A stretch of 64,000 nucleotides of DNA from a virus: IMG/VR virus record IMGVR_UViG_3300038461_000101, positions 1 to 64,000 of that record; one strand, 5' to 3'. Below, piece after piece: positions 41,184-64,000 of the stretch. Numbering within the stretch: the first letter of the stretch is position 1; each line of letters starts with the position of its first letter. The notes under the pieces are model-generated. The model searched no databases. It saw only the letters and a program-made list of their open reading frames with translations, and was not told the origin of the DNA. The translations under genes were made by a program, and so were the position numbers.

Positions 41184-42737
41184 CTATGAGGCGAATGCGC
41201 CAACACTGGCGGCTGCAGGAAGTCTGCGGCTGCGCCAATAACTGCCAAAGAGTGGGCTAATCGAACCAGTTGTTGCAGTAGCTTGGATCTTCAATGAAGT
41301 ACCTGCATTATTCTTTAGCCAGATTTTGAAGTGAGCATAATGTGTAGCGGCTGATAGAGAAGCTGTCGTAATTGTATATACTGCTGAAGTAGTCATTGCT
41401 TGAGCCTCAAGCATTGTAGCAGTTCCTGGAACTGCAGTCACACCAACAACCGGTGACATCTCAAAGAACACATTCATCTCGGTTGGTGCACCACTATTGG
41501 TCAACGTCCATACAATGGTAGATGCAGTGACCTTAGTAAACCATAATTCAATCTCGATTAAGTAATAGGCACTGGCTACCAGTGGGATGTTTGATGTCGT
41601 TCCAAAGAAGTTGGCAATGGTTGTTATCGAACCTGCTGAACTTTGCAGACTAAAGAATTGCTCAACAGGGATAATGCCACGGCCAGAGGTTACTTCATTG
41701 GTCATGTAGGAGTTGATGGAGTCATATTCTCGGGCTCCAGCCACCTGAGCAGAGAGAAGAATACCCGTTCCTTGGTAATAGGCAGGAGCCTGACCTGCAG
41801 TAGCGGTTCCAACCATGAATTTGACAGTACCCGTAAAGATAGCACCAGCTAGGAGAGCGCAAGCCAATAAGGTTTGTGCCTGAGCTACGGTCATGGCGAT
41901 AATGTCGCCTGTAGCAATTCTTCCTACAAAAGTGCTGGCCGGGACAGACATGGCAACTGGAGCCGCAGATCCTGATGTGTTATTTACTACCACTGTATCG
42001 GTAGCAATCGTTCCAAGATCACCAATCATATAAGCCAGAAGAGTTTTTGCCTGAGTAACTGTCATGGCTATGATGTTGCCAGATGCGATGCGGCCAACAA
42101 AAGTACTCGCTGCAACCGCCACAGCAGTAATAACGGCTGAACCGGCAGTGGCATTTGCCATAATGGTATTTGCAGCAACTGCAGCAAGATCACCGACCGC
42201 ATATGCAAGTAAGGTTTTTGCATTTGCCACAGACATGGCCGTGACACTACCGGAAGCCAAACGTCCTACGAAAGTGCTGGCAGCAATTGCGATCGCTGCT
42301 GGAGCTGCAGCACCTCCTGTATTATTTCCCATCAGGGTAGCATCAGCTACTGTGGCAAAATCTGCAAAGGTATAAGCCAACATCGTCTTTTGTTGGGCAA
42401 CGGTAAGGGCAACAACATGGCCTCCAGTAATGCGACCTATCACGGTTTGGGCTGGAACTGCGATTGCTACTGGTGCTGCATCCCCTGCTGTATTGTTGGC
42501 AAGAACAGTATCCGTGGCAATTACTGCCAGATCTCCAATGGCATAGGCAAGAAGGGTTTTGACCTGAGCAACTGAAAGGTCATCTATATGGCCCCCGGTA
42601 ATGCGTCCAAGCAGGGTCTGCTCAGCAAGGGTTACTGCTGAGGGAACTGCTGCACTGGCTGTGGCGTTGGCAAGGACTGTATCAGCTGCTTGCGTGTAAA
42701 GTTGCTTTAGCTTGATGCCTGTTGGTGTCGCTGGCAT
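41184..42737 (-). CDS. Virion fibre-like protein with about five tandem ~57 aa repeats
   Basis: Repeat unit LAY..GDL..IA..T...N.T...A.P.A..V.A.T.VGRI..G.I.A.TV.QAKTL, Ala/Thr rich. Confidence 0.75.
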   Translation of the reverse strand: MPATPTGIKLKQLYTQAADTVLANATASAAVPSAVTLAEQTLLGRITGGHIDDLSVAQVKTLLAYAIGDLAVIATDTVLANNTAGDAAPVAIAVPAQTVIGRITGGHVVALTVAQQKTMLAYTFADFATVADATLMGNNTGGAAAPAAIAIAASTFVGRLASGSVTAMSVANAKTLLAYAVGDLAAVAANTIMANATAGSAVITAVAVAASTFVGRIASGNIIAMTVTQAKTLLAYMIGDLGTIATDTVVVNNTSGSAAPVAMSVPASTFVGRIATGDIIAMTVAQAQTLLACALLAGAIFTGTVKFMVGTATAGQAPAYYQGTGILLSAQVAGAREYDSINSYMTNEVTSGRGIIPVEQFFSLQSSAGSITTIANFFGTTSNIPLVASAYYLIEIELWFTKVTASTIVWTLTNSGAPTEMNVFFEMSPVVGVTAVPGTATMLEAQAMTTSAVYTITTASLSAATHYAHFKIWLKNNAGTSLKIQATATTGSISPLFGSYWRSRRLPAAASVGAFAS

Positions 42738-43845
42738 TGGGATATTCCTTTTTTAGCCAATTCATATTGGTCTTTTCTGGATACTCTTTGTTCCATCCTT
42801 CCTTCTCCAGAAGGGAAGACAATCTATTGAAATACTCTCTATACATCATGCCACAGTGATCCATGGAAAAGTTGGCAATTGCATATTTTCGAATGACTTT
42901 GGGTTCAAAGTTTTCCAGATGTTGAGCTGCCCAAACAAAGTCATCTCTTACTGCACATCGCCAACCAGTTACTCCATGAATGATGGTCTCGGGATACACC
43001 CCAAAGTTGGATACGATCACTGGTGTTCCCGACATAGCTGCTTCGATAGTAACTCCCCCGAATGGTTCAAGATAGATGGTAGGCGAGAAGACTGCCTGGG
43101 CCTCGGCCAGGAGTTTTGCACGCTGTTTTGGATCATTGATCGGACCGAGGAACTCGATGTTTTTCCAATTGGAAAGTTCGACATCTTCCAGCTTTCCCTG
43201 ACCGGCTATGACCAATTTCTTCCCAAGCTGCTTGCAAATATCGGCTGCAATGTTGATACCCTTGCGATAGATCAACCGGCCAAGGTAAAGGAAGTAATCT
43301 TCTCGCTTGTCGGCAACGTAGAAGGCACGTGGATCAAAGTAATTGGGGATAACAGTGTCGAACCAGCGTCCGTTCTCGATCCCCTGCTTTCCATAGATGA
43401 AGTTCATCCAGGCATTACTTTCAAAGACAACATAGGGGGCAAAGGTTCCTGGATAACCCACGCCCGATTCTACCTGTAGGGGATAATCGGTCAGCCCACG
43501 GCTGATGTCGATCTGTCCAAAGGGGTAAAGGATTATGTCCTGGGGAGTTGAGTTGGCTCGGATCTCCCGAATGGCATTGATATTGAAGAGGCGGGAAGCA
43601 TCAGTTTCATCAATGTTATAGAAGTCTTCTGGCTTGACGTTCCCATAATCAATATCCCAATGCTTTCGAGAAAGAACCGTGATGTGCTTGCAACCAACTT
43701 CAGCCCCTTCAGTTCCATAATGGATTACTTCGAACCCCTCCTTTGGAAGCATCTTGCTGAGTTTCCAAACCTTCTGAGTATAGGCGCAGGTTTGCCACTT
43801 AGGAGAGGTGATTGTATGTGGAAGTCCGATCAGGTGAATTTTCAT
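42682..43845 (-). CDS. Glycosyltransferase family 4 (GT-B)
   Basis: YLGRL...KG, LVIAGQG, EPFGGVTIEAAMSGTPVI (Ex7E), ETIIHGVTG. Confidence 0.92.
   Translation of the reverse strand: MKIHLIGLPHTITSPKWQTCAYTQKVWKLSKMLPKEGFEVIHYGTEGAEVGCKHITVLSRKHWDIDYGNVKPEDFYNIDETDASRLFNINAIREIRANSTPQDIILYPFGQIDISRGLTDYPLQVESGVGYPGTFAPYVVFESNAWMNFIYGKQGIENGRWFDTVIPNYFDPRAFYVADKREDYFLYLGRLIYRKGINIAADICKQLGKKLVIAGQGKLEDVELSNWKNIEFLGPINDPKQRAKLLAEAQAVFSPTIYLEPFGGVTIEAAMSGTPVIVSNFGVYPETIIHGVTGWRCAVRDDFVWAAQHLENFEPKVIRKYAIANFSMDHCGMMYREYFNRLSSLLEKEGWNKEYPEKTNMNWLKKEYPNASDTNRHQAKATLHASS
43162..43175. repeat. TTCCAATTGGAA palindrome copy 7 (14 bp)
   Basis: Exact match. Confidence 0.85.
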
Positions 43846-49452: not shown

Positions 49453-50429
49453 GCGAGGTTCTTCCTTCCGTTCATGGTCATGGAAAACGAACCATTCTCA
49501 AGGGAAATTTGAATGTCTTCGATGATGGCATCTTCGGTGATATGGGTTTTGGTACCGGCCACAATCAAATCGAAGTGCATCAAATCGGAGATCTCCGGTC
49601 GGGGATCCAGACGCATTTGAGCCGTGATTGGAGTTCGATGTTCCAGGGCAATCTCTTGGATAGTATGAGTGGCTTCTACTGCACCAATATCCAACTCTGA
49701 GAGTTGGTAAAGTCTGGTAATGAACCCAACCTGCTCAGCAGCCAGGGCATAAGTCGAGATACCTACATCGTAGTAGTAGACCAAACCATCTGAGGAAATA
49801 TCGTTGTTGTTGACCTGCTTGTTGTCATAACTCCAAACATGGTTGGCTGCCACGGTGTCTTTGATGGTGTGATAGGTGAAGGCAATTGCCCGGTCGGTTT
49901 CAGGGAAGATCCAGACTGGCCGTTGCTGGTAGATCGACTGCAGGGCATTGTCACCAGTGGTTTCATAGTCCACATACACAGCATCACGCCAATCAGGAAT
50001 CTCTTCTCTGCGAATGTTGGTGAGTGTCACGGCACCACCTAGGGCTTTGAGATCGGCCACCGTGGTGTAATCGGCATACTTGGTCAGGGCCATGACGTAG
50101 GAGTAAACCCATCGGTTGTTGCAGTAAACCGAGATTGCTACATCGTGAATATAGATCCAGACATCCAACGCTGGATTAGTGGTATTTCCAATTGGAAAAT
50201 CGGATGTGTCAACGATTGTGCCACCAAGAAGAGTGGATACTTGCATATACCGATTTCCACCATGAGTGGTCGTGCCAATTTGAATAGTGAGAACCTTGTA
50301 TCCCTTATCGGGATCTGTGTTCTCTTTTCCAAATGCAGCAATGCCCTGGATGTCGGTTTCCAGAAGCAAGGAAATTGCATCATTGACGGTATAGGTGTAG
50401 CGCAGGGAGAAGGCACCGTTCTTGTTCAT
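49449..50429 (-). CDS. Putative tail/baseplate hub protein
   Basis: C-terminal DPRPEISD...IEDI.I.L...F.M.M.G pattern typical of hub proteins. Confidence 0.55.
   Translation of the reverse strand: MNKNGAFSLRYTYTVNDAISLLLETDIQGIAAFGKENTDPDKGYKVLTIQIGTTTHGGNRYMQVSTLLGGTIVDTSDFPIGNTTNPALDVWIYIHDVAISVYCNNRWVYSYVMALTKYADYTTVADLKALGGAVTLTNIRREEIPDWRDAVYVDYETTGDNALQSIYQQRPVWIFPETDRAIAFTYHTIKDTVAANHVWSYDNKQVNNNDISSDGLVYYYDVGISTYALAAEQVGFITRLYQLSELDIGAVEATHTIQEIALEHRTPITAQMRLDPRPEISDLMHFDLIVAGTKTHITEDAIIEDIQISLENGSFSMTMNGRKNLA
50185..50198. repeat. TTCCAATTGGAA palindrome copy 8 (14 bp)
   Basis: Exact match. Confidence 0.85.
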
Positions 50430-53371
50430 ACACTCACCGTGCCATTCTGTGCAAGAGGAGCTGAGGCAATCAGATGATCACCCGGGAAGCGTGCCTGAGT
50501 TCCCGAAAGTCGAGTTACTTTGTCCAGTAAACCTTCGATGGTATTGTCTTCATCGCCACTGGTTCCCATGAAGCCAAGCAGGGTCACAGAATCGTTATGG
50601 TCTATGTAAACGAATGAGCCGGTCGTGTGTTGTACTTCTGTCTTGGTGGTGTCGATCAAAGCTACTCCAGTAAGGCCATTGGTAAGCCAAACCTTTTCCT
50701 CGCAACTGTCATTGGCACCTTCAGGGATTACATCATTCAGGCCATAGATACGCATTCTCTCTAATTGCCATACCACTACACCCCCGGTTGTAACCCAGGG
50801 TTTAAAGAAGGTCTGGTCAGCTATCCAGGAATAACCATTGTCAGTGCAGACAATTGCACCTGCAAAGAGGGCATGGTTGGAGTCGTCGGAGATCCATTCA
50901 AAATCGAAAATCTCAACGGCCCGAATGCCAGTATAGTGGTAACTGTCATAGAGATCGGTGTTATATCCATTCCAATTCAGAATAGCCCTGAGTTGATAGG
51001 GACCACGGATCTGGTCATAGGTAAAGAAGGTGTTCTTTCCTGAGAAGTTGTAGATGTAATCATCGACAGAGATCTTGCCAGATGATGGGAAGACACCGAA
51101 GGCAGATGCTCCAGTCTCAGGATCAATGTCACAGGGCATGACTGGTATCTGGTTGCCAGATGAAAAGAAGCCACAGCAGCGGAACTTTGGTGGATCTATG
51201 ATGGCCCAAACTCCAGTATGGTAGATGTATGAGCCGGAGGCATCTGTGTCGATGTTCTCTGGAGAAGATGAAACAATAGGCACTTCATAGGTGATTGGAG
51301 TATCGGATGTCTTCCAGGAATAAGACAGCATGGAGCCTCGTTGAGGCCATGTCGCTGCAGCGATCGCTTTGTATTCCACGCCAAAGAGACCATCCCGGTG
51401 CCAGAAACGAATATCATATGTGCCACCATCCTGGATGCCAGCTTCAGCCACTTCAAAGAGTGTGTACCGAATGCCATAGCGGATCTTGGCAATTCCAATG
51501 TAACCGGGGCGCATGTAGCCTGCAATGAAGTTATCCTTATCGGTGCCCAAGCCAAGAAGACCCGCAAAGGTGTATGGACCCACGATCGTAAATCGACCGG
51601 TCTCTTCAAAGTTCCAGGCATTCCATGGAGAGAAAGCAAACAGAATTTGGGGAACACCTTTTTGCTGAGTGGTGATCTTGCTATCTACCACAGTGAAGCC
51701 CAGGGTAGCTGATGGAATGTATTCCACCACGATCCCGGGCATTTCAATTCGAGAGAGATAGTAAGTGGTGTTGCCTGAGCCAGAGATAACACGCACTCCA
51801 AGTTTCAGGATCTTCCATCCCTGGCCGGGATTGGTAAGAGTGAAGGAAACAGGGAATGAGCCAGCCCGGGCACCCGCCGCAAACCAGGTCTGAGGTGGAT
51901 TGGCATGGGCTGAGGTGAGATTACCTATCAGGGTAACAAGCGTGGAAACATTTCCACTGAGATCCTGAACCTGAACAAGCCCATAGAAAGTATCGTTGGG
52001 GGTGTTGGTAGGAGTGGAATCGGCCACATTCGGATTGGTGGAAGGGATACCAGCCCTGGACCAGCCATAGATATTGATCACATAGCTGGCAGCATCTTCA
52101 AAGATTGGATATGAAGTGGCAAGGCCAGATTCCAAAAGGTCATTTCCCCAGGTATCTGTAGTGGTACTTCCAGCGTGGGTTTGGCGGGTATAACCCTCAG
52201 GATCTGAAGTGGGTGAAAGATCTTGAGTAAGTGACCAGCGTTGACCGGCTCCTCCATCCACGTTGGAGAGTGAGTCAAGGGTAAGGCAGGGTGTTTGGAG
52301 ATATTGTTTGCCCTGCCATTCCATGTAATAAGGATGGGTCATAACACTGGTGTGCCAGGGGCCATCTGCTTCCAGTTGGATGGACATCTTTCGCAATCCA
52401 TTTGCCCAATTACGATCGACCGCAGAGATAACCACATCGTAGTATTTCACCCATTCGGGGTTGGCATTGGCTGTTACGATACCGATCTCCAGTTTGGCAA
52501 ACCCACCTTCTACTACCAAGGGATTGGTATAGTATTCTTCCTTCCCTGATTTGATGTCTGCCACCCATCCCTGAGTTACGGATCCCGAGAGATTTCTCAT
52601 GACGATGGCGATATTTTCTGTAGCTTCGCCAATGATCTGGTAAGGGGCACTTGTTCGATAGGTATGAGTGGTATTGTAGAAAACAATCTGGCCGGTACCA
52701 GTCTCATATCTGGCACCAAAGCGATCATCCACAATGCTGACCAGCACCCGCCGATCCAGAGAGAATGTAAATCCGTTATCAGAATAGGTGAACAAGGTCC
52801 ATCGGGCATCATTCTGGAACTGGTCTTTTCGATAGAACTTGCCGACCATGAAGATGCGACTGTTGTAGACGAAAACGCTTGAGATGTCGAAGCTGCTCAT
52901 ATCTTCAGGGATGGCCGTGAAGAAGTCTGACCATGTACCATCCCGATTGTTGGCATTCAGTTTGTAATAAGCTCCTATAACTGCTCCATTGAAAGCTGTG
53001 AAATAGGCAAAGACCTTATCTCCAAGCAATACTGCGCCACCATAAGAGAGATGGCAGGTATCTGTATCTGCAGTCAGCACGTTCACTGGATCGAAAATCC
53101 TACCTGGAGAAACATGGGAAGCGGCCAGATCGTCTATGAAGGCCAGCCTGACAGCACCTTCATCGTAATAGAACTTTACTCCCTGAGTGCCAGAGACTGG
53201 ATAGGTCACATAACCGGCTCCTGATACTGGAGCCAGCGAGGGTGTGTAGACTTCGGCCTGCAGATCATCGGCACCAAAATAGACACGAGACTTATATGCA
53301 GTAAGTCTCGATTTTGCTTTGATGCCAACCAGAGCAAGGGCTGCAGGAATTGCTGCTGTCGTGGTTCTCAT
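50426..53371 (-). CDS. Large tail/baseplate structural protein (981 aa)
   Basis: Long beta-rich ORF downstream of the tape-measure-like and Dit-like genes. Confidence 0.65.
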   Translation of the reverse strand: MRTTTAAIPAALALVGIKAKSRLTAYKSRVYFGADDLQAEVYTPSLAPVSGAGYVTYPVSGTQGVKFYYDEGAVRLAFIDDLAASHVSPGRIFDPVNVLTADTDTCHLSYGGAVLLGDKVFAYFTAFNGAVIGAYYKLNANNRDGTWSDFFTAIPEDMSSFDISSVFVYNSRIFMVGKFYRKDQFQNDARWTLFTYSDNGFTFSLDRRVLVSIVDDRFGARYETGTGQIVFYNTTHTYRTSAPYQIIGEATENIAIVMRNLSGSVTQGWVADIKSGKEEYYTNPLVVEGGFAKLEIGIVTANANPEWVKYYDVVISAVDRNWANGLRKMSIQLEADGPWHTSVMTHPYYMEWQGKQYLQTPCLTLDSLSNVDGGAGQRWSLTQDLSPTSDPEGYTRQTHAGSTTTDTWGNDLLESGLATSYPIFEDAASYVINIYGWSRAGIPSTNPNVADSTPTNTPNDTFYGLVQVQDLSGNVSTLVTLIGNLTSAHANPPQTWFAAGARAGSFPVSFTLTNPGQGWKILKLGVRVISGSGNTTYYLSRIEMPGIVVEYIPSATLGFTVVDSKITTQQKGVPQILFAFSPWNAWNFEETGRFTIVGPYTFAGLLGLGTDKDNFIAGYMRPGYIGIAKIRYGIRYTLFEVAEAGIQDGGTYDIRFWHRDGLFGVEYKAIAAATWPQRGSMLSYSWKTSDTPITYEVPIVSSSPENIDTDASGSYIYHTGVWAIIDPPKFRCCGFFSSGNQIPVMPCDIDPETGASAFGVFPSSGKISVDDYIYNFSGKNTFFTYDQIRGPYQLRAILNWNGYNTDLYDSYHYTGIRAVEIFDFEWISDDSNHALFAGAIVCTDNGYSWIADQTFFKPWVTTGGVVVWQLERMRIYGLNDVIPEGANDSCEEKVWLTNGLTGVALIDTTKTEVQHTTGSFVYIDHNDSVTLLGFMGTSGDEDNTIEGLLDKVTRLSGTQARFPGDHLIASAPLAQNGTVSV

Positions 53372-53796
53372 GAAGTAGGTTCCGTTTCTGCCGTGATGCA
53401 AAGGAAAACGACCTGCACGTAATACCAGGCTTCCAGTCCTTCCAGGGCAGTTGCAAAGGGCTTAGGCTGAACCTGTTGGCTGAAGATAACTTGAAAGGTT
53501 TCTCCAAAGAAATCCACAAGGGTCAGGATATTGGTTGGAGTTCCGCCAGGGTCGTTGTATTTGAAGAACCGGATGAGGTCAGCATAGGTGCCACGATCAC
53601 CATCATCTTCGTCATAGCGCAGACGCAGGGTGAAGTTCCATAAGCGAAAGATACTACCCATACTTACATCAAGATCACCATCCAAGGTGACTTGAAGATC
53701 CTGCTTCTTGTCGAACTCTTCGATGTAACCATCGGCTATGGCATAGAACTGCTTTGAGAGAGATCCATTACTGTTGGTGAGAGTGAAGTATTTCAT
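53368..53796 (-). CDS. Putative distal tail (Dit-like) protein
   Basis: 142 aa, directly follows the tape-measure-like ORF, GAGG SD. Confidence 0.5.
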   Translation of the reverse strand: MKYFTLTNSNGSLSKQFYAIADGYIEEFDKKQDLQVTLDGDLDVSMGSIFRLWNFTLRLRYDEDDGDRGTYADLIRFFKYNDPGGTPTNILTLVDFFGETFQVIFSQQVQPKPFATALEGLEAWYYVQVVFLCITAETEPTS

Positions 53797-53803
53797 GGTT
53801 GCC

Positions 53804-56800
53804 TCAATTGTTTAGGTCCTGGGCAACGGTTCGAATAATGAAGTCTCGAATCTTTTCATTGCCGATGAAGATCTGAATGACCTGTGGTGTATTCCCGCCA
53901 CCAGTTCCCCTTGCAAGAGATAGGGAATGGTTCAGGGAAGAACCCTTGAGCTGGCTATTGGGGGTGACATTGAAACCACCACCAGGAAGGGCCGTAACCA
54001 ATTCTTCATAGCCAGTTGGAATACCAGAGAGACTATCACCAACAATGGCTGAGCCACCAGGTCTTACTGAACCACCAGCAGCGCATTTGACAGAGTTATG
54101 GGTGAGCATTTTCTCTGCATAATATTCATGCTGGCCGCCAACAACCATGGTGTAGGTTGGAACTTCAACTTCTGTATAGGACATGTCGATGATAGATTCA
54201 TAACCTTCTTCGAAGGTAAGGATCTCATCTCCAATTTCCAGACCACCAATAATATCCAGACCATAATAGGATTTTTCAGAAGCCAGGGGATCAATGGATT
54301 TCCAACCGTGGCGAGTATACATTGGGTGATCGTTGGTTAGATTGAGAATCTGACCACTGGCAAACTTGATAGTCCAAATACCTTCTCGGATCGGTTGGAT
54401 AAGGCCATGTACTTCAACACCTTCCTTTTCGAAGTGATCATTCTTTCCCATGACTATATCGCCAAGTTTCACATCTTCAATGGCCCTTTCGGAGCCATCA
54501 CCCATCAGGATCTTGGTACCAGCCAGAAAGCAGCACAATCTTCCTTCATCGGTTGGAATAGGAAGACCAAGAGCTTTCATGATGTCTTTCCAGGCTTGCA
54601 CTAATCCAGCGTCAAGAAGAGCTACTGCTCCAGCAGCCTTGGCAGCATCAGTTGAGAGATCAAGTTCAGTTGTGGACAGATCCTTTTGGTCCTTGGCAGC
54701 CTGAGCTGCAATACCAGCGGACTCTGTAGCAAGTTTCTGCTGTTCAACGAAGTTGGCCCGGGCAAGCTTGATGGATTGCAGTTCCAGATCCATCTGTACT
54801 GCATAGAACTCTTTGGCCTTATCTAACTGTTGCTGTTGAAGTTGCTTGGTCTCTTCGAACTGTTTGATCTGCAGTTTGTATTGTGCTTCCTGGAGAGCCC
54901 ACTGTTGTTTTTGATAGCCAAACTCAGTCTGACGTTGACTGGTTTGCATGTTGTATTCAGTGATGTTCTCTTTCTGCTGCATTTCTCCGAGTCGACGTTC
55001 ACGGCCAGAAGTGAAACGAGCTTGTTCTTTGTACATAGTCTGGCTGAAGCCAAATTGCTGAGCAGCCATAGCCGTATTGAAACCAAACTCTTCGGTTCCT
55101 TGTGCACGACCAAGAGCCATTCCTTGGGCCTGTAACCCCATGGATTGATAGAACTGACTGGACTGCAGGTTGATTTGTTTCTGCTGCATTCCAAAGCCGA
55201 ATTGGGTTTGTGCAATTCCAAGAGCACGCTGAGCATCTTCAATACCCCATTGTCCACCACCCTGGGAAGTGAAACTACCAGTACCGGGAATACTCCAGGA
55301 AACCTTACCAGTATTGAGACCGAAATTGCCACCGGTTTGCGGATTGACCAAACCAGCATAGTTCTGTAATCCCACTCCTGTAGTAAAGGCAAGATTAGCT
55401 GCAATACCTTGTTGCTGAACTCCAACTCCAGCCATGGCAAGTTCATAATTCTTGGCAATCGCAGTCTGTTGTACTTTGATGGATCCACCGGCAGCAGCGG
55501 CGGCCATGTAGGGATTATTTTCCCAACCAGCTCCGAAAATCTTTCCAGCCATTTCACTGGAACTTGGACCACCAAGAATACCCAAACTAGATGTTCCATA
55601 GGCCATACCAGTAAGTTGGCCGCCTGGAGTTACATCAGTTCTGGCAAGATTATAGGCAGGCATGGTTCCACCACCCATAAGAGGTAGGGGTGCCATCTTG
55701 TTGTAATTGATGCCATACTTGGCAGCAGCCACACCAAATCCAAGTGGGTTCTTCTGAGAGATCATCTCCCACATGGTATAGTCCTGGAAAGGAATAGTAT
55801 ATCCAGTGGGAGCTACATCCTGAACCCTTTTGATTGCTTCAGGACCAGCTAGGGGCGCAGTAGGAGCAACGGCTGGAGGAGTAATCCCAATATCATTATT
55901 GTTGAGAGCATTGATGAGATTGTCTCTCGTTGAAGGTTGAGGTGAAAGACTACTTGGGACCGCAGTTGCTCTTTCTCCTCCAATGTTTGCAAATTTCAAT
56001 ACATGATTTACTACATCCATAATAGATTTAGGTATTGGATTCTTGGAGAAGTAGTCTTTTTCAGATATGCCTGGACTTACTGAAGGCTTATTGCCTTGAG
56101 CAGCTTTGGCCGCCAGATCTGACTTGAGTTTTTGAAGATCGACCGAAGTGTTTCCAAGAGTGGCAGCAGTTTTTGTAATGGTCAATGGAGGGGTGGATAA
56201 TGTAGTAGCAGGACTACCATTGATAGACTCATGACCACTTGTAGTAGTTGGAGGTCCAAAAGCAGCAGCGATTTTAGCAACCATTTCAGCATCACCCGCT
56301 GTAGCTGCCTGCATACCCATGGTATTGGCGAGATTATCTCGGCGTGCTTCAAGACTAGCATAGGAATTGGCCTGATTTTGCATTACTTGAGCAGCACCAA
56401 TTGTCTGCTGCATAGGTGCAAGATCAAGAGGATTGATACCTGTAGGAATGCCAAGCATTGTCTGAGCAGTAAATTTCTGAGAAGCTGCCTGATAATATTG
56501 AGTTGTTGTCTGATCCAGACCACCCCATGCCTGAGCCCAGGTGTTCATTTGTGTCATTTGGGCCTGAGAAGGAGTCCCTGAAGTAGCCAATCGCCCCATC
56601 TCGGACCATCGCAGACTTGGCATATTTCCAAGAGTAGCAGCACCTGCAGCGAACAGTTTCTGTTCTTGCATACTCATTGGAACTTTCTCATTGTTGAGTT
56701 GATTGGCTACGATCGTAGCGGCCAGGCTTGGTTGATTTCTGGTACCAGTGATCTGTGCTTGAGGATAACCAAGACCATAGAGAAGGTTCTGGTAAGCTCC

Positions 56801-59800
56801 TAAGTAATCAACACCCTGAGCATATCCCTCTGCCATACGTTGTGCCCCAACCTGAGAGAGTGGAGCTGTTGGATTTTGCACCATGAAAGTTGCAGGAGCA
56901 ATCAGAGTTTCCTGGGTACCCTTATATCCTTTGTCTACCATGTTGGTAGCAAGGGCTGCAGCGGCCTCGGTTGGAGATCCTACAGAAGCCATGAAACCCA
57001 TTGCTTTGGCAAAAGATGATGGAGTACCAGTTTCACTAAGAGCAGCTGTAGCTCCCTTATACATTGTACTGGATTGCTGGATAGCAGCCAGTTTTGTAGC
57101 AGATCCCTGGATACCAAGAGCTGTACCGATCTTGGCAGTCTCGGTTGAGAAGTATGCTTCTATGTCCGATCCCATGAAACCATAGGTCAAGTTGGTATTA
57201 TTACCTGGCATTGCTCTTGCAGCGGCATAACCTACCGATGTAGTATCCCGGGCCTCAGCAGAAGCAACAAAGGATCCTACACCTACTGCCAATGCTGCTG
57301 CCAATCCTAACTTAGCTCCAGCACCTGGATTGGTTTCTGCAAGTTTCGGGAATGCACTTTGGAGATAGAACTCACTGGCACCGGCTGCAGCTACACCTGC
57401 AAATATTGATTGACCCAATGCCATAGGTGTGGGGTTCTTGGCACTCCAAACATCCATCATCTGTTGAGGAGTTTGTCCACCATAACGGGCTGCCATTTGT
57501 GAGGCTGCATAAGCTGCCGGAGACACAAAGGGTGCATTGGCACCAAGAACACCATTGGCATAATTCGCCATAGCCTGCTGAGCCTGCTGAGCTTCAGGGG
57601 CACCATAACCAACACCTTCAGTGATAATGCCAGCAATACTTCTGGCATACATCAAGCCAAATCCACCAAGAGCTTTACGAGCAAATCTTGCAAATGGGGA
57701 CATGGCAGCATTGACAGCTATGGCTTTGTCGCCCTGCATTTCGGCTGATGTTTGTTCGAGTAGGCCCTGGTCAGCCTGAGTAATCATGCCACCATTAGCT
57801 TTGGTTCTGGCAGAGATCTCAGCCACAGTTGCCACATTAGAAGCAAGTCTGGACTCAGCAAGTGGACCCTTGAGGGCTGCTTGAGCTTTCTCAAAAGCTT
57901 CACCAGTACTCTTTACGGCAGCGGCATGTTGAGTTACTGATTTGGTATCATCTCTTAAAGCGGCTGCATGGGCTACTGCTGTCTTCTGTAATTCATCCAC
58001 GGCTGCCTGGGCAGCTGGATTGAGTTGTGTTCTCTTCTCAAAGGATCCACTCAAAACATCAGCACCACTTTCACCCTTGATGGCTTTCAGTGTACCGGCC
58101 ATCTGAGTGAAGGAATCTGGTAGGGCTGCCTTGGTGACATCACCAGTTAGACCCGACTGCATTCTCACAACTGCATTAGCTACACCAGCAAGTTCTGGAT
58201 TGGTTCGAAGGATCCCTTGAAGGGCTTGGGCTTTTTCTTGATAACCCATTCCTGGATTGAAGAGGCCTCGTTGGGCCATTGCCGCATTGAGTTTGGCAAA
58301 GTCCTGTCCTCCAGTACCTACTCCAGAGACCAGATTATTGATTTGGTTCAGCTGCTCAACATTGCTTGTGATCGAACCAAGAACTCCCTGCAGACCAAAA
58401 CCTACATTGATTGCATGACCTAACTGGCCGGGAGCTTCTTCAGCAGCCTCAGTATTTTCAATCATTGCCCGTTCACTAGGCGATATATCAATAGGATCTG
58501 CAAAGGAAGTAGCTACAGATCCCATGATCACTTTCTTCTTGATATTCGCCAATGTCTTGATACGGGCAGCTTCAGGGGCCAACTTACCAATTAGTCGAAG
58601 AGCATTGGGACCACCAAGCCCCTTACCTACACCTTCAACAATTTCTTTTGTGGTGGGTGGATTGCCAGTGCGAGGAAGAAGATTCTCTGCTTCCAGAATG
58701 TCCTGAATACGATTGACCGTTTCAGTGCCAGTAACATCCTCACCCATATCGGTTACAGGACCAGCCATGCCAATGGCAGCCAGGGCTGCTTGGATTGCAT
58801 CCTTGGCTACTCCATGGCTCATTCTGAATATCTGTGAAGCTTCATTCCCGAGCATAACTTTCTCGACATCGGGATTGTAGGTCGTGGAACCAGGTTCAGC
58901 CAGATAGGAACTTACTCGCTGATTTTGGTTATTGAAAACAGGGATCTCGTTGGTTCTGAAATGACCAATGATGGTATCGCCTTCGCCACCGTAGAAGTTG
59001 ATCCTTCCACCTTGGCGAGGAATGATTGTTTCACCAGCCTGAACCGTAATATCTCCATGACCTTCAGCATCTTTTCGACCATGTAGATCTTCAGGACGAA
59101 TGGGGCCACCAGTATCGAATCGCTTATCACCACTCTCTGATTTCTTGGGCCACTTTGGAATTTCAGGGCCGCCTGATTCTGGCTTAGGAGGCCAGGGATA
59201 GGCTGTCTCATCACCAAAGGGAATTTCTGGAATGTCATCCCAATTGAAGTTATCAGGTCCATCCAGAGGAGTTGGAGTTTTCGGAAGTTGTCTGGCCGCA
59301 TCTCTCTTCGCTTTTTGGTTGGCTTTCCATTCTGCAAGCCATTTGGCATATTCTGCAGGATCTGAAATGTGACCAGATTTTGTCGGCCCATTGCCAGATG
59401 TTCCAATTGGAAGATCGGTAGATGTAGTGGGTGGACCCATTGGAGGAAGACCCTGATTGGGTACACCCGTAGGAAGTGAAGCCAAAACTTCTCCCTGCAG
59501 GGGAGTAAGCCTCAAAGCTGATTCAATTACTTTAGTAGGAGTAACTTGACCAAGTGCATTCTTGGCAAGCTGATTGGCACCCTTATGGAGCAATTGGATG
59601 GTCTTCCCCATCTGTGCTTCAACTTTTTTGTCAGCCAGGACCGCTGCATCGGCAGGTGACATTGGGGTAGCAGCCCTTGCCCCATAGGTTCCCATGAGTT
59701 CTTCAAGAACTGCTTCAGGAGCCATTCCTTTGGCTTCAGCGAATGGTGTGATCAGGTCTCTTATTTCCTGGTCGGCATAGGTATAAGCATCGACTGGAGA

Positions 59801-62800
59801 AATACCTCTGGACACGGCTCGTTGAGCATACATATGAGCCTTGTAATCAATGGCACTGACAACGGTATTTTCCTCTGGAAGAGTATAGGGAATGCCATAA
59901 TTGTTTGCCAGGGTTATCAGTTGACTGCGGGTAATGCTATCGGGAATATCTCCAATTGATTTGGAGATCATGGCTGCAGGAACATTTACCTTGCGTTGAA
60001 GAAGGTTGATGATACCAGCCGCCCGAGTAATGGCTTCAACGTGGAACTTGTTCTCAAAGACGTTCCTTGCAATCCTGGACTCGTTTAGGAACTTCTCTTC
60101 TTGAGATCCAGGGGCCGGTTTCTGATATTCCAAACCTTCTGCTTTTCGAGTGGCTGCAGTAACAAAGGGTAGGAAAGCTGGTAGGCTCATCATAGATTGG
60201 GTGAATGGTTTGCGTTGTCTCTGACCAAGTTCTGTCGAGACATCTGCCAGTCGATGCAACCCATGCTCAGCCAATTCTTTGGAGCTGTAGAGATTCCCCG
60301 TGTCTGGATTTACTGGATCACCAGTCAGAGTATTGATATGGTTGGTGATTGCAACCAGATACTGGCTGCTCAGATCCTTGGAGGGATCGGCGGCTTCCAG
60401 CTTCTTTTGAAGAATAGATTCCTGGCCTGGATAACTGAATGCCTGAGCCAGAAATTCAGGACTGGCAATTTCAAAACCTTCTCCCTTACCACCCACCTTG
60501 ATCTTGGTTGTCATCATGGCTGCGATAGAACCAAGAGCATTCACTACCTGGGGCTGGTCAAGTGTTTGTAGTGGAATTGCCATTCGGTTGGTTCGGCCAC
60601 GTTCATTGACCACGTTGCTACCAATAATTAGCTCGGCCTCACCAGTTCTTTCATTCAATCCAAAGCGAGACTTGGCAATGGCACCGGCCCAACCAACACC
60701 TTGGGTTTCCTGACCAAGATTTGTCTTATCCAAGGGGAATTGATAGAAGGACTGCATTCCTGCATAGATCCGAGATTGAGCTTCTTCGGAGTAACCAGAA
60801 GCAGCCATTGTAGGAATGACAACTCGACGGATGTTATAGGATTCGCCCATGCCAATTTGGGCATACCAGGAGTTCAGACCGGCACTAATCACATCCCCAT
60901 ATTTCTTCCAACCAGCCTTCTTGATGGTTTCTCCAATGACGTTGAAGTTGGGATCCACTAGATCATTGACAGCCTTTACAGCACCACTGGCAAGATCGGC
61001 TTGTTCAGGGCGGAACATCTTTGACTCAATATCGAAGGTTCCTTTGGTAGTGAGGCGTTGACGGTTCTTCAGTTCCTGGAATGCTTTGCCTTGTTCAGCA
61101 TTGCCACCCATGACAAAAGCACCTACCACAGGATCATAGTCAAAGTCACCTACACCTACGCTGGCAAATTGCTGAGAGACAAAGAGAGCACCCTTGAACT
61201 CTGGACTGTGAAGAAGCTGGTTCATGAACTTGCCACCAGTGCGGTTGCGCATCTCCTCGTCACCAAGGAGATTGACACCCATAATACTTTCCAGTTCAGT
61301 GCCCTGCGGATAACGAAGCATGAAACCCTGCAGTGGGCCACCCATGGACAATTCCTTCATAGCCTGCTTCATATCCTTGCGCCGAACACCACCTGCTTCC
61401 AGTAACTTTCGGCGTTCTGCAGGTGGCAACCAGACTTCATCAGGGCCTAAGGCACCTAAGTAACCAAACCGACCACCCCAACCAGTAGGCATAGGTCGGT
61501 TATGGACAGCCTTATAAGCCTCACCACCACCTTGGAAAATATCTCTCCATTGATCGAACAAACCTTTTACTGCAGTCTGACCATATTCCTGGAGTTTCTC
61601 AGGAGCTGTGCCAGAGAAGGCTTGGAGTTGGGCAAGTTTCTCAATGCCCTTACCCCACGTTCTGGTAACACCACCGATCTCTTCTCCGGTAGGGCCCTTG
61701 AACTGCAGTTCCTTGACGGTCAGGGGGTTCATGTCATAGGTATTGGAAAGCGGAAAATAGAGTAAGCGATTATCACCTTCCTTGATGTCAAGGATCCCGG
61801 CCATCCGATCGAGGGTTTCCTCGGTCATATTGCGACCACCACCGGTCGCTCCAACGATACCAGCCATAGCCAGGGCTTTGCCCTGATCTACTTCGATATA
61901 GGAAGTAGGGAGAATAGCGGGGGTTTGACCTTCACTTACACCCATCTGCCAGGAAACAAATGCTGAGGCTGCGGTGAGTGCCTTAGCCTGGGCTCCCTGA
62001 TGCTGGATTGGTTTTGAAACATCCAGCCCCATCTCTGAAGCAAATTCTGGAAATTTGGCTGTAATAGATCGGGCCAACTCTTCATTGGCACCATGCCCAT
62101 GCACAAATTCCAATTGCCGGGGAAGAGCTGTACGAGCGATCATTGCATGACCAGAAGCAATTTGAGAAAGGGTGATCATGTCTGATCGACCCAATGCTTC
62201 CTGCCCAATCAATGCTTTGGCGGCTGCCTGAACATCAATTGTTCCACCTGTTTTGAATTGGTTCAGAACAGCGTCAATGTCTGCCTGGGTAGCTCCTGGT
62301 TTTTTGCCTCGAACACTTCTGGCTGTAATCTGTTGAATGAACTCAAGGTTGGCCGGATGAGTAGGCCCATAGGGTACTTCGATGTTTGGGAGATACCCAA
62401 TTCCGAAACTCTTCAGGTTGAATAGATTGCGTCTTCGTTGTTTCTCATTTGCCATATCGACATCAACGAAGACCTTCTGGAATACATCCAGACCAAGGCC
62501 CTCTGAAGGTTCTTTCCAACCTCCACCAGCTGCATTGAACTTTTGGGCGATCTCTTCCCAATCGGTTGTCTCATTGCTTTTTCCCAACCAACGAGACACT
62601 TTGTAGGCTGCATTGCTGGCATCGCCTTCTGTTTGTCTACTATAGGAACGGAAGATTCCTGCCAATTGCGATCGTGATTGGTATCCTAAGATACCTTCGG
62701 TGATTGCAGAACCACCTTTCATTTCCCCGGTCACGTATTGAACATTTAGATTGCCAGTGCCCAGGGGAACTTTCAATCTTTCACCAGTTGGGGTGAGAGA

Positions 62801-64000
62801 GTATTTGTAGCCAAGACCACCTACTTTGGTAGGCACATCATAGCCAACCCCACCAATGTCAAGTGAAACCTTATCAATGCCAAGAGCACGAACAGCCCAT
62901 CCGGTTCGAGCAGTTATATCTCTGGCAACATCTTCAGTGGATACAGCATTGAGATCCGTCATTGGCACAGGAGCCCCGGTATCCTTGTGCATGAAGGCTG
63001 GAATAGTCATTGAGATTTGAGTTGGAGAAAATTTGGAAGATCCTGTTTTGAAGGTTAGTGGATCACCATTGATTGTTCCTGCACTATAGGTATGCCCAGG
63101 AAGGTATCGTTTCCCACGAATGTCCTTGATCTGAAGGGGACTGTTTGGACCAGCCAATGATCGTATATCTTCAATGGGAACATTGACTGGCTCAGTAGTA
63201 GGATACCCATATGTCTTTTCTCTTTGGGCTCCTGGCATGACCATCGCAAGACCACCACCACCAATGAATGTGGGGGTGAATAAGACATTTCCAATCTCAT
63301 TTACTCTTGGTTCGGCTTCTCCTGGAACTCTCAAAGTGGCAATTCCATAACTTGGAGCATATCGGTTCATGATGGGTTGAGGCTGGTTTTCAACCAGTTC
63401 ATCACGACCTTCGAGATGGATCCAGTGATAGGGTTTGGCTCCGCCACGACCATAATCAATGCTTGGAACGCCCACCATCTTTTCAGCATTTCGAAGACCA
63501 TAGACCATATCAGTGGTCGCATCATATTCACCAATGGGACTGAGGTTGGCTTTCTTATCCAATGCCATACCAATCCCACGAGCATCTTGCCAACGAACAC
63601 CAGGTGCATGAAGAGGATCTATGGGGCCATAGCCGGTCATCAATTTCATGTTCAGCATCTTGAGAGCATCCTGCTGCTCGTAGGGTGCCAATTTGGTTTG
63701 GTCAAATTTTTGGGTTACTACATTGATGCCCTGGACTTCCCTATTCTCAACCGCCTGGAAGGAGTTCCATGGAGTACGACTATATTTACGAGTGTTAAAC
63801 TCGGCATTTAGAGCAGTATTAGGACTTTCTCCTATACCCTTATAGAATGTTGTCCAGGCATTTTTGATAGAAGATGCAAGATTCTCCAAAGGTGTAGTGA
63901 TTTCATCTCGAACATCATTTTTGGAAAAATAAGTAAGGGTATGGGTGGATGGAATTACAACAGCACTACCACGTTCTTCCTGGTTCCCGATCATTGGCAC
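53804..64000 (-). CDS. Giant tape-measure-like protein with a putative two-barrel RNA polymerase region and a Hint domain, 5'-partial
   Basis: Open for >3,398 aa to the window edge. MLRYP (61307-61321) and GDFDYD (61133-61150), Ala/Gly/Gln-rich helical middle, Hint domain, C-terminal AAGG...VG...EL motif of tape measure proteins. Confidence 0.75.
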   Translation of the reverse strand: MPMIGNQEERGSAVVIPSTHTLTYFSKNDVRDEITTPLENLASSIKNAWTTFYKGIGESPNTALNAEFNTRKYSRTPWNSFQAVENREVQGINVVTQKFDQTKLAPYEQQDALKMLNMKLMTGYGPIDPLHAPGVRWQDARGIGMALDKKANLSPIGEYDATTDMVYGLRNAEKMVGVPSIDYGRGGAKPYHWIHLEGRDELVENQPQPIMNRYAPSYGIATLRVPGEAEPRVNEIGNVLFTPTFIGGGGLAMVMPGAQREKTYGYPTTEPVNVPIEDIRSLAGPNSPLQIKDIRGKRYLPGHTYSAGTINGDPLTFKTGSSKFSPTQISMTIPAFMHKDTGAPVPMTDLNAVSTEDVARDITARTGWAVRALGIDKVSLDIGGVGYDVPTKVGGLGYKYSLTPTGERLKVPLGTGNLNVQYVTGEMKGGSAITEGILGYQSRSQLAGIFRSYSRQTEGDASNAAYKVSRWLGKSNETTDWEEIAQKFNAAGGGWKEPSEGLGLDVFQKVFVDVDMANEKQRRRNLFNLKSFGIGYLPNIEVPYGPTHPANLEFIQQITARSVRGKKPGATQADIDAVLNQFKTGGTIDVQAAAKALIGQEALGRSDMITLSQIASGHAMIARTALPRQLEFVHGHGANEELARSITAKFPEFASEMGLDVSKPIQHQGAQAKALTAASAFVSWQMGVSEGQTPAILPTSYIEVDQGKALAMAGIVGATGGGRNMTEETLDRMAGILDIKEGDNRLLYFPLSNTYDMNPLTVKELQFKGPTGEEIGGVTRTWGKGIEKLAQLQAFSGTAPEKLQEYGQTAVKGLFDQWRDIFQGGGEAYKAVHNRPMPTGWGGRFGYLGALGPDEVWLPPAERRKLLEAGGVRRKDMKQAMKELSMGGPLQGFMLRYPQGTELESIMGVNLLGDEEMRNRTGGKFMNQLLHSPEFKGALFVSQQFASVGVGDFDYDPVVGAFVMGGNAEQGKAFQELKNRQRLTTKGTFDIESKMFRPEQADLASGAVKAVNDLVDPNFNVIGETIKKAGWKKYGDVISAGLNSWYAQIGMGESYNIRRVVIPTMAASGYSEEAQSRIYAGMQSFYQFPLDKTNLGQETQGVGWAGAIAKSRFGLNERTGEAELIIGSNVVNERGRTNRMAIPLQTLDQPQVVNALGSIAAMMTTKIKVGGKGEGFEIASPEFLAQAFSYPGQESILQKKLEAADPSKDLSSQYLVAITNHINTLTGDPVNPDTGNLYSSKELAEHGLHRLADVSTELGQRQRKPFTQSMMSLPAFLPFVTAATRKAEGLEYQKPAPGSQEEKFLNESRIARNVFENKFHVEAITRAAGIINLLQRKVNVPAAMISKSIGDIPDSITRSQLITLANNYGIPYTLPEENTVVSAIDYKAHMYAQRAVSRGISPVDAYTYADQEIRDLITPFAEAKGMAPEAVLEELMGTYGARAATPMSPADAAVLADKKVEAQMGKTIQLLHKGANQLAKNALGQVTPTKVIESALRLTPLQGEVLASLPTGVPNQGLPPMGPPTTSTDLPIGTSGNGPTKSGHISDPAEYAKWLAEWKANQKAKRDAARQLPKTPTPLDGPDNFNWDDIPEIPFGDETAYPWPPKPESGGPEIPKWPKKSESGDKRFDTGGPIRPEDLHGRKDAEGHGDITVQAGETIIPRQGGRINFYGGEGDTIIGHFRTNEIPVFNNQNQRVSSYLAEPGSTTYNPDVEKVMLGNEASQIFRMSHGVAKDAIQAALAAIGMAGPVTDMGEDVTGTETVNRIQDILEAENLLPRTGNPPTTKEIVEGVGKGLGGPNALRLIGKLAPEAARIKTLANIKKKVIMGSVATSFADPIDISPSERAMIENTEAAEEAPGQLGHAINVGFGLQGVLGSITSNVEQLNQINNLVSGVGTGGQDFAKLNAAMAQRGLFNPGMGYQEKAQALQGILRTNPELAGVANAVVRMQSGLTGDVTKAALPDSFTQMAGTLKAIKGESGADVLSGSFEKRTQLNPAAQAAVDELQKTAVAHAAALRDDTKSVTQHAAAVKSTGEAFEKAQAALKGPLAESRLASNVATVAEISARTKANGGMITQADQGLLEQTSAEMQGDKAIAVNAAMSPFARFARKALGGFGLMYARSIAGIITEGVGYGAPEAQQAQQAMANYANGVLGANAPFVSPAAYAASQMAARYGGQTPQQMMDVWSAKNPTPMALGQSIFAGVAAAGASEFYLQSAFPKLAETNPGAGAKLGLAAALAVGVGSFVASAEARDTTSVGYAAARAMPGNNTNLTYGFMGSDIEAYFSTETAKIGTALGIQGSATKLAAIQQSSTMYKGATAALSETGTPSSFAKAMGFMASVGSPTEAAAALATNMVDKGYKGTQETLIAPATFMVQNPTAPLSQVGAQRMAEGYAQGVDYLGAYQNLLYGLGYPQAQITGTRNQPSLAATIVANQLNNEKVPMSMQEQKLFAAGAATLGNMPSLRWSEMGRLATSGTPSQAQMTQMNTWAQAWGGLDQTTTQYYQAASQKFTAQTMLGIPTGINPLDLAPMQQTIGAAQVMQNQANSYASLEARRDNLANTMGMQAATAGDAEMVAKIAAAFGPPTTTSGHESINGSPATTLSTPPLTITKTAATLGNTSVDLQKLKSDLAAKAAQGNKPSVSPGISEKDYFSKNPIPKSIMDVVNHVLKFANIGGERATAVPSSLSPQPSTRDNLINALNNNDIGITPPAVAPTAPLAGPEAIKRVQDVAPTGYTIPFQDYTMWEMISQKNPLGFGVAAAKYGINYNKMAPLPLMGGGTMPAYNLARTDVTPGGQLTGMAYGTSSLGILGGPSSSEMAGKIFGAGWENNPYMAAAAAGGSIKVQQTAIAKNYELAMAGVGVQQQGIAANLAFTTGVGLQNYAGLVNPQTGGNFGLNTGKVSWSIPGTGSFTSQGGGQWGIEDAQRALGIAQTQFGFGMQQKQINLQSSQFYQSMGLQAQGMALGRAQGTEEFGFNTAMAAQQFGFSQTMYKEQARFTSGRERRLGEMQQKENITEYNMQTSQRQTEFGYQKQQWALQEAQYKLQIKQFEETKQLQQQQLDKAKEFYAVQMDLELQSIKLARANFVEQQKLATESAGIAAQAAKDQKDLSTTELDLSTDAAKAAGAVALLDAGLVQAWKDIMKALGLPIPTDEGRLCCFLAGTKILMGDGSERAIEDVKLGDIVMGKNDHFEKEGVEVHGLIQPIREGIWTIKFASGQILNLTNDHPMYTRHGWKSIDPLASEKSYYGLDIIGGLEIGDEILTFEEGYESIIDMSYTEVEVPTYTMVVGGQHEYYAEKMLTHNSVKCAAGGSVRPGGSAIVGDSLSGIPTGYEELVTALPGGGFNVTPNSQLKGSSLNHSLSLARGTGGGNTPQVIQIFIGNEKIRDFIIRTVAQDLNN
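54095..54532 (-). other. Hint domain / mini-intein (146 aa) within the giant protein
   Basis: CFLAGTKILMGDG (block A), LTNDHP (block B TxxH), YTMVV..QHEYYA..MLTHN then +1 Ser. No endonuclease domain. Confidence 0.9.
59401..59412. repeat. TTCCAATTGGAA palindrome copy 9
   Basis: Exact match. Confidence 0.85.

Follow-up and report, generated by a model that had tools for sequence, protein, structure and literature searches.

The giant gene and its homologues

The stretch of DNA analysed here (the window) corresponds to the first 64,000 bases of one viral contig of 88,723 bp from an uncultured peat phage (IMG/VR record IMGVR_UViG_3300038461_000101), whose completeness was estimated by CheckV at 100% and whose class in IMG/VR is linear. 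The window ends inside a giant minus-strand gene that occupies the position of a tail tape measure gene and whose product carries, in its N-terminal part, candidate motifs of a two-barrel RNA polymerase (RNAP). Within the window its open reading frame (ORF) was open at the edge and encoded 3,398 amino acids (aa); on the full contig it extended for a further 204 nt to an ATG at position 64204, which recovered the missing N-terminus (68 more codons) and completed the product to 3,466 aa (Table 1). The ATG is preceded by AGGAG 8 nt upstream and by an in-frame stop codon at 64223-64225, and it overlaps the stop codon of the preceding 97-aa ORF. The presence of a giant ORF in the tape-measure position, pointed out in an earlier interpretation made from the letters of the window (the sequence-only reading), was confirmed, and translation placed all motifs named in that reading exactly where it had put them. 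All 30 bins of the gene were covered by contigs from two peat-metagenome runs of two different studies, one of which may be the source sample itself; 35 of the 36 peat-run contigs had at least 99% identity, and neither an indel nor a joint was present across the gene. The sequencing runs listed as containing the sequence included no RNA run, which speaks neither for nor against transcription.

A HMMER scan with residues 300-1499 as the query against 1.84 billion representatives retrieved 23 homologues (E 6e-185 to 4e-4), which aligned over positions 1-985 of the query. All of them were metagenomic, either unnamed or "hypothetical", and encoded on contigs of up to 80-90 kb; 18 of the 23 were 2,734-4,030 aa long. 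A much shorter homologue, P0010 (1,247 aa, on a 56,022-bp ENA contig), stopped just past the polymerase part and may be truncated, frameshifted or the product of a split gene; no relative was found when it was used as a query for related loci. Of the 6,815 candidates from the word-indexed search of 5.8 billion proteins, the query itself was the sole match, and the polymerase part gave unnamed viral clusters alone in the ESM Atlas (0.84-0.85). No cultured relative was found among 50,697 GenBank phage records: tblastn produced no match with the N-terminal 1,350 aa, with the divergent members P0025 and P0022 or with the tail-tube protein encoded upstream, and four chance-level matches, none of them relevant, with the core at E<=10.

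Conserved residues and predicted fold of the N-terminal part

Conservation was evaluated in alignment A1, comprising 24 sequences with residues 300-1330 of the peat protein as the first row. The columns P966, D1020, D1022, D1024 and D1159 were invariant, and those conserved in at least 90% of the sequences included R964, G1019, K467, K496, N1124 and Y1154; both lysines were invariant in a second alignment of 19 sequences. The R.P motif and the DxDxD loop, on which the sequence-only reading had built its argument, were therefore both conserved in the homologues. They are encoded within GFMLRYPQ...GALFVSQQFASVGVGDFDYDP at 61118-61327 on the minus strand, and the arginine (R964, codon 61313-61315) was replaced in a single sequence, P0003, which has Ser instead. 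The lysine guess of the same reading, which concerned TKVGGLGYK (residues 459-467, encoded at 62804-62830 on the minus strand), stood in one half: the last lysine of this segment, K467, was invariant, and its conserved partner turned out to be K496 and not K460.

The DFDYD loop is the sole D.D.D pattern within the 3,466-aa protein. Such a pattern occurred in five of the 217 ORFs of at least 90 aa, the other four being only 109-185 aa long, and about 0.4 occurrences per 3,466 aa would be expected by chance at 5% Asp according to our own arithmetic. Because a single D.D.D is near the chance level, the weight of DFDYD comes from its conservation and not from its presence. It was shared by the query and by 23 of 23 homologues at one place of the alignment, with F, Y, L, W, S, H or E at loop position 2 and Y, A, R, F, K, I, W, V, L or M, never Gly, at position 4. 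Since the homologues have only 18-39% identity to the query, the invariance of these residues represents a signature of catalytic residues.

The AlphaFold2 model of residues 300-1330, built on A1, had a mean predicted local distance difference test (pLDDT) score of 78.9 and a predicted template modelling (pTM) score of 0.74, with 82 residues below a pLDDT of 50, mostly among the last 59. Four regions can be distinguished in the model: a beta-rich one at the N-terminus (model residues 1-193), holding K467 and K496 and confidently predicted around them; a helical region of approximately 400 residues; a strand-rich unit (model residues 609-733) in which one strand carries the R.P motif and the Asp loop connects two others; and a set of long helices, including a 34-residue helix with the conserved GMG..YN.RR. 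A 19-residue helix also follows the predicted barrel, and the YQ..LD motif is conserved.

The Foldseek search of this model against PDB produced 363 rows at E<=10, one of them at E<=1e-3, and the best 50 of the 363 were all chains of RNAP entries. They included the non-virion RNAPs of phages AR9 and phiKZ, the bacterial, plastid, poxvirus and African swine fever virus enzymes and RNA polymerase I; the top match was 7s00_d (E 9.8e-4), and the probability was 1.00 for this and for most of the listed rows. In BFVD, nine rows had E<=1e-3. The best overall fold matches, both spanning most of the model and neither of them characterised, were found here: A0A075BUT7 from Microcystis phage MaMV-DC (E 1.7e-8, template modelling (TM) scores 0.38/0.44, 1,039 columns) and A0A8S5SD80 from uncultured Siphoviridae sp. 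ctnpt50 (E 2e-7), which is likewise annotated as a tail protein ("Minor tail protein"). Among the weaker BFVD rows were RNAP subunits of jumbo phages, giant viruses, nudiviruses and poxviruses and giant proteins of crAss-like phages. No paper joining Ma-LMM01, RNA polymerase and DxDxD came up in a full-text search. A double-psi beta-barrel (DPBB) around DFDYD, as anticipated in the sequence-only reading, was thus predicted, with strands flanking the loop and a fold matching RNAP catalytic subunits.

Tail module and the putative ruler part

The giant gene belongs to a tail module that runs from the portal through ORFs of 239 and 478 aa, the SU10-type adaptor and a 181-aa ORF to the tail tube, two ORFs of 144 and 97 aa and the giant gene itself, followed by ORFs of 142 and 991 aa. 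The portal gene, upstream on the same strand, matched PHROG 64 (E 9e-15), and the adaptor scored 30 bits in Pfam against a cut-off of 27. The 350-aa tail-tube protein had itself only a weak match to Phage_tube_2; among its 204 homologues, this family (PF18906) was present in 78 of the 120 listed, according to our own count. The two small ORFs of 144 and 97 aa, located between the tube and the giant gene, overlap each other and occupy the usual site of tail chaperones, so they are chaperone-like by position. No sheath-sized gene was present between the adaptor and the tube. The identical gene order was found in two IMG/VR contigs of 82,851 and 84,630 bp encoding the homologues P0009 and P0007, in which the counterpart of the 142-aa product has 149 aa and that of the 991-aa product 1,150 and 1,145 aa. 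In the peat phage neither of these two products had a sequence match in PHROGs, Pfam or PDB. Further downstream follow a 326-aa ORF without a family match, a collagen-like tail fibre, a glycosyltransferase and an endolysin. From the "Dit-like and tail genes" announced for this side by the sequence-only reading, the tail fibre was recovered, and nothing Dit-like was recognised, the 142- and 991-aa products having no family match.

The giant gene is the longest tail gene, placed between the tube with the chaperone-like pair and the distal tail genes, and no other candidate for a ruler gene is present in this interval. Beyond the polymerase part, the Pro-rich linker and the Ala/Gly/Gln-rich region seen in the sequence-only reading are real by composition, with Ala, Gly and Gln reaching up to 41% in the ruler part. 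Hydropathy revealed one clear hydrophobic, glycine-zipper-like segment at residues 2294-2319, inside a conserved Gly/Ala-rich block that contains GGFGLMY and GAGAKLGLAAALAVGVGSFVASA. The language-model neighbours included TMP_3, PhageMin_Tail and TMP_2 clusters (0.85-0.86), which is a weak lead. Because no tape-measure family matched, the ruler role is argued from position, size and composition; it is well supported by position and poorly by homology.

The ruler part also contains a Ser/Thr/Pro-rich stretch of approximately 150 residues (2651-2800; window ~55805-56254, minus strand), which is nearly missing from 18 long homologues (occupancy <=0.13).

Close to the C-terminus, a Hint or mini-intein-like domain was identified, scoring 30.2 bits with Hom_end_hint, i.e. 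under the Pfam cut-off of 32.1. Its recognisable residues are CFLAGT...TNDHP...THN|S, with C3225, TNDHP, HN and S at +1. The domain was inserted at one shared site in five of the 19 long members and cleanly missing from the other 14. The residue following HN in the five carriers was S, A, L, T or K; three of the five copies therefore have no splicing nucleophile, and a self-cleaving Hint domain or decaying inteins would fit better than a uniformly active intein. No peptidase family was detected in the giant protein by Pfam at E<=1.

These features bear on an alternative in which the protein is a real injected RNAP but not the length ruler, or in which the polymerase is cut off as a free ejection protein similar to N4 gp50 or crAss-like gp66. 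The missing tape-measure family match would agree with it, as would the long Pro-rich linker (residues 1300-2100), which could hold a cleavage site, the homologue P0010 with its end just past the polymerase part, and the putative self-cleaving Hint module, which would mean that autoprocessing is used in the family. However, no alternative ruler gene is available, three genomes share the succession of tube, two small ORFs and giant gene that is canonical for siphoviruses, and 19 of the 24 sequences (query included) keep both the polymerase and the ruler part in one ORF of >2,700 aa, which makes this alternative unlikely.

Table 1. Features of the giant gene and of the surrounding genome (window positions, unless marked as contig positions)
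Feature	Position	Strand	Evidence or remark
Giant gene	window 53804..64000; full gene contig 53804..64204	-	3,466 aa; first 68 codons past window edge
Conserved RNAP-like core, ~residues 300-1290	60335..63307	-	HMMER alignment, conservation profile, AlphaFold2, Foldseek
K467	62804..62806	-	invariant 19/19, >=90% of 24; beta-rich region; candidate lysine of second barrel (DPBB-B)
K496 (TGEMK), second invariant lysine	62717..62719	-	two alignments (24 and 19 sequences)
Predicted catalytic barrel (DPBB-A), residues 908-1032	61109..61483	-	model strands E609-733
R964-Y-P966, R.P motif	61307..61315	-	P 24/24, R 23/24 sequences
D1020-F-D-Y-D1024, candidate Mg-binding loop	61133..61147	-	three Asp invariant 24/24
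34-residue helix, residues 1102-1135, bridge-helix candidate	60800..60901	-	model H803-836; N1124 >=90%
D1159 (YQ..LD), after long helices	60728..60730	-	invariant column D860 of alignment A1
Poorly conserved linker with Pro-rich stretches, ~residues 1300-2100	57905..60307	-	identity <=0.17; occupancy 0.29-0.30 in two 50-aa bins
Gly/Ala-rich hydrophobic block, residues 2150-2330, candidate membrane segment	57215..57757	-	identity peak 0.38
Best-conserved C-terminal tape-measure-like region, residues 2850-3200 (W/Q-rich repeats, then coiled-coil-like)	54605..55657	-	conservation
Hint/mini-intein-like domain, C3225..N3370, then S	54095..54532	-	Hom_end_hint E 5.7e-7
Conserved C-terminal tail (AAGG...G.S..G.P...; ...IGNE.I..F...V)	53807..54094	-	conservation profile
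142-aa gene, downstream, syntenic	53368..53796	-	no family match
991-aa gene, downstream; presumed distal tail/tip, by position	50426..53401	-	no family match
Collagen-like tail fibre, 898 aa	44572-47268		confirmed
Glycosyltransferase within tail-fibre block, adjoining collagen-like fibre gene	42682-43845	-	PHROG 3408, E 8e-68
C-5 DNA methylase gene	25281-26774	+	in opposite arm
tRNA-Arg(TCT), the genome's only tRNA	contig 83922-83996	+	single gene
TTCCAATTGGAA copies in window	2290, 13061, 15906, 22960, 30504, 35510, 43163, 50186, 59401	palindrome	exact match

Comparison with known systems

The sequence-only reading knew of no characterised fusion of this kind, and this part of it fell: in Thermus phage P23-45, the 5,002-aa tape measure gp96 was shown to have a two-barrel virion RNAP as its N-terminal part (Chaban and colleagues, Nat Commun 2024, PMC10770324; here and below, P23-45 is described from parts of that paper). 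This polymerase has DFDGD at residues 779-783, was found in virions and transcribes the pre-early genes; its structures, 8H2M and 8H2N, are flat and clamp-less. P23-45 has in addition a non-virion RNAP paralogue, gp64, and proteins of the gp96 type are also known from P74-26, G20c, TSP4 and P23-45_stolb1-3. Chaban and colleagues was the only relevant paper found in the full-text literature on tape measures together with virion or two-barrel RNAPs, and the gp96 relatives in GenBank phages came from only 10 records, all of Thermus phages. The same paper contains 23 RNAP family alignments and a survey of viral genomes (Supplementary Data 3 and 4), in which the peat family may already be listed.

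In architecture, the peat protein resembles gp96 in several respects. Its giant gene fills the tape-measure slot of a long-tailed phage with a genome of 80-90 kb, a predicted N-terminal single-chain RNAP with R.P and DFDxD is followed by a helical ruler with membrane-type segments, and, as in the P23-45 genome, early and structural genes occupy opposite strands. In contrast to this likeness, no sequence similarity was detectable to gp96, to the gp96 alignment or to any other P23-45 protein; the tblastn search with the 217 ORFs against the P23-45 genome gave two trivial matches of 37-38 aa. The spacing from R.P to the Asp loop is 56 aa in the peat protein against 38 in gp96, and the first invariant lysine precedes the Asp loop by ~553 aa against ~231 (K548-D779, by our own reading), so that a large helical insert would be present in the peat protein where the clamp-less gp96 has a short disordered connector. 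Unlike gp96, the peat protein had no metallopeptidase match and contains a Hint domain. A gp64-like paralogue was missing from the peat genome, where no other large ORF contains D.D.D and no ORF had an RNAP match in Pfam. The setting also differs, being mesophilic peat instead of the hot springs of the Thermus phages.

The crAss-like phages are podovirus-like, and gp66 is not known to be a tape measure. With gp66 of crAss-like phage phi14:2 (PDB 6VR4) the peat protein would share a virion-packaged giant two-barrel RNAP with a DFDxD loop free of Gly (excerpts of 10.1101/2020.03.07.982082). BFVD gave fold matches to giant proteins of crAss-like phages (E 3e-3 to 2e-2), which were weaker than those to the beta-prime pieces of jumbo phages. 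The virion RNAP of coliphage N4 is a T7-like single-subunit "right-hand" enzyme and not a two-barrel one; its virion has a short tail, and it is not known to be a tape measure either. The N4 protein gp50 (~3,500 aa), which belongs to the same size class as the peat protein, is a giant injected protein whose central part transcribes the early genes (excerpts of PMC13434306 and PMC13492108). The non-virion RNAPs of AR9 and phiKZ (7S00, 7S01, 8QUE, 7OGP) were the best PDB fold matches to the catalytic-barrel region of the peat protein (E 9.8e-4 to 1.1e-2, probability 1.00, TM by target 0.26-0.29) at an identity of 11-16%; they are separate beta-prime-like subunits of multisubunit enzymes and have no tail fusion. 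Overall, the comparison supports the peat family as a sequence-unrelated counterpart of the tape-measure-fused virion RNAP, similar to gp96 in architecture.

Interpretation

The giant protein is probably the tail tape measure of a siphovirus-like phage with a very diverged single-chain two-barrel RNAP at its N-terminus, packaged in the tail and injected for early transcription. The fusion of a two-barrel-type RNAP to the protein in the tape-measure slot, the central proposal of the sequence-only reading, is supported by the conserved motifs, the predicted fold, which places the putative enzyme at the N-terminus, and the gene order. From these data and by analogy we infer that the protein is an active polymerase, that it is located in the virion and serves as the ruler, and which genes it would read; packaging in the virion, ejection and transcription of early genes would follow the example of gp96.

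A number of results weigh against this interpretation. No sequence method tied the giant protein to any RNAP. Pfam returned for it no family above the cut-off and only the sub-threshold Hint domain; the families PF00623, PF00562 and PF05183 (RNA_pol_Rpb1_2, RNA_pol_Rpb2_6 and RdRP, the RNA-dependent RNA polymerases) matched nothing genome-wide at E<=10 in searches whose controls were matched in 14 of 14 cases for PF00623 and PF00562; sequence and profile searches of PDB produced coiled-coil noise alone; and hhalign reached probabilities of 0.13 with gp96 residues 1-1200, 0.11 with a gp96 alignment of three members and 0.12 with gp64. For the ruler part, no tape-measure match was obtained in PHROGs with the giant protein and three homologues, and no tape-measure family in Pfam with the giant protein and three further homologues, apart from a sub-threshold glycine zipper. 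At the structural level, the high-probability PDB rows aligned over 215-350 columns, which would correspond to the catalytic barrel (residues 908-1032), at marginal E-values. The gp96 structures 8H2M and 8H2N were not among the best 50 of the 363 PDB rows, and the P23-45 protein A7XX94, taken as gp64 because its length of 616 aa equals that of the gp64 coding sequence, appeared in BFVD at rank 50 with an E-value of 0.45. In a sub-model of residues 300-545, the lysine region had a pLDDT below 50, and Foldseek with this sub-model gave no row below E 1 and a few chains of RNAP second subunits at E 2-6. Finally, the peat loop is DFDYD in contrast to DFDGD of gp96, with Tyr at the place where gp96 and the cellular enzymes have Gly.

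The lack of matches in Pfam, in the genome-wide RNAP-family searches and in PDB indicates a family beyond the reach of profiles, and gp96 is likewise outside profile reach according to its authors (PMC10770324, in part). The same lack of any detectable sequence link to a DNA-dependent RNAP would also be compatible with a two-barrel polymerase of another kind (RdRP, primase-like or PolD-like), active in replication or counter-defence, since the two-barrel enzymes include the RdRPs of the QDE-1 type and the archaeal PolD (PMC10770324, in part). We consider this improbable: the best 50 PDB fold rows were all from entries of DNA-dependent RNAPs, with neither PolD nor QDE-1 among them, and the characterised proteins with such an architecture and gene position are virion transcriptases alone, as far as the parts of PMC10770324 used here extend. 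Still less probable, to a degree that we regard it as very remote, is that the motifs represent a structural or inactive relic or an unrelated metal site and that the RNAP-like fold prediction is misleading. The marginal PDB scores (one row at E<=1e-3), the missing profile similarity to RNAPs and a model built on 24 sequences speak in its favor, but three Asp, the Pro, D1159 and two Lys were kept despite the low identity to the query, which argues for catalysis, and the top fold matches were exclusively RNAP in PDB and mainly RNAP in BFVD.

According to the preferred interpretation as a tape-measure-fused RNAP, the catalytic barrel would carry R964-x-P966 together with the Mg-binding loop D1020-F-D-Y-D1024, and the beta-rich region upstream, with K467 and K496, would be the second barrel (DPBB-B). 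The long helix with GMG..YN.RR may be placed as the bridge helix, and the variable Pro-rich linker would connect the enzyme to the helical Ala/Gly/Gln-rich ruler part. By analogy with P23-45 gp96, the protein would be assembled into the tail lumen and expelled at infection, whereby the hydrophobic segments of the ruler part may help to build a channel through the cell envelope and, during DNA entry, the phage genes arriving first would be transcribed by the polymerase at the N-terminus. Because the genome has no second RNAP-like gene, the later genes would be read either by the host enzyme or by fresh copies of the giant protein. A bolder version, which we put forward only tentatively and consider rather doubtful, is that tape-measure-fused RNAPs arose a second time or split long ago into two lineages, the family being the second, and that the protein is the only polymerase of the phage. 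It would act twice, first injected, with transcription beginning at the entry pore, and later newly made, as the transcriptase inside the cell; a common group of mesophilic phages from soil and sediment would then depend little on the host RNAP, and tail-delivered transcription would be a strategy common among long-tailed phages and not an oddity of the Thermus phages.

Other features of the genome

The opposite arm of the genome (window 1-37000, plus strand) contains replication and modification genes, including two radical-SAM genes, a CDP-glycerol glycerophosphotransferase-like gene, a C-5 cytosine methylase, a DnaB-like helicase and a Mgm101-type recombinase. No sigma factor was seen among ten proteins scanned.

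A 12-bp palindrome, TTCCAATTGGAA, was present in 13 exact copies and two one-mismatch copies in the 88.7 kb. It is by far the most repeated word of the genome, with the copies located ~3-10 kb apart. The search for repeated promoter-like words gave only this palindrome, which was rejected as an early promoter: its copies are distributed genome-wide, at least four of them lie within ORFs (43163, 50186, 59401 and 69711), and it is missing from the 28.9-kb locus of a relative. The final 10 bases of the contig (88714-88723) are identical to its first 10, GGTAGGAGCA, which suggests a circularly closed assembly, despite the linear class assigned in IMG/VR.

Significance

The experimental record of tape-measure-fused virion RNAPs consists, in the full-text literature found, of the Thermus Oshimavirus phages only. 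The family described here is unrelated to them in sequence, matches them in architecture and occurs in uncultured phages of ~80-90 kb from peat and other metagenomes. With 23 homologues at 50% clustering, and with more than 200 clusters for the linked tail-tube protein, the giant protein belongs to a common uncultured phage lineage. For annotation, this means that giant "hypothetical" tail proteins are worth screening for R.P...DxDxD. The family offers natural variants, i.e. a loop without Gly, a large insert between the barrels and a genome without a second polymerase, which bear on how so large a polymerase is stored in, and passes through, the tail tube. If the interpretation is true, two-barrel RNAPs can diverge past all profile detection and still keep a few catalytic residues, and the coupling of DNA entry to phage-borne transcription via the tail would be widespread.

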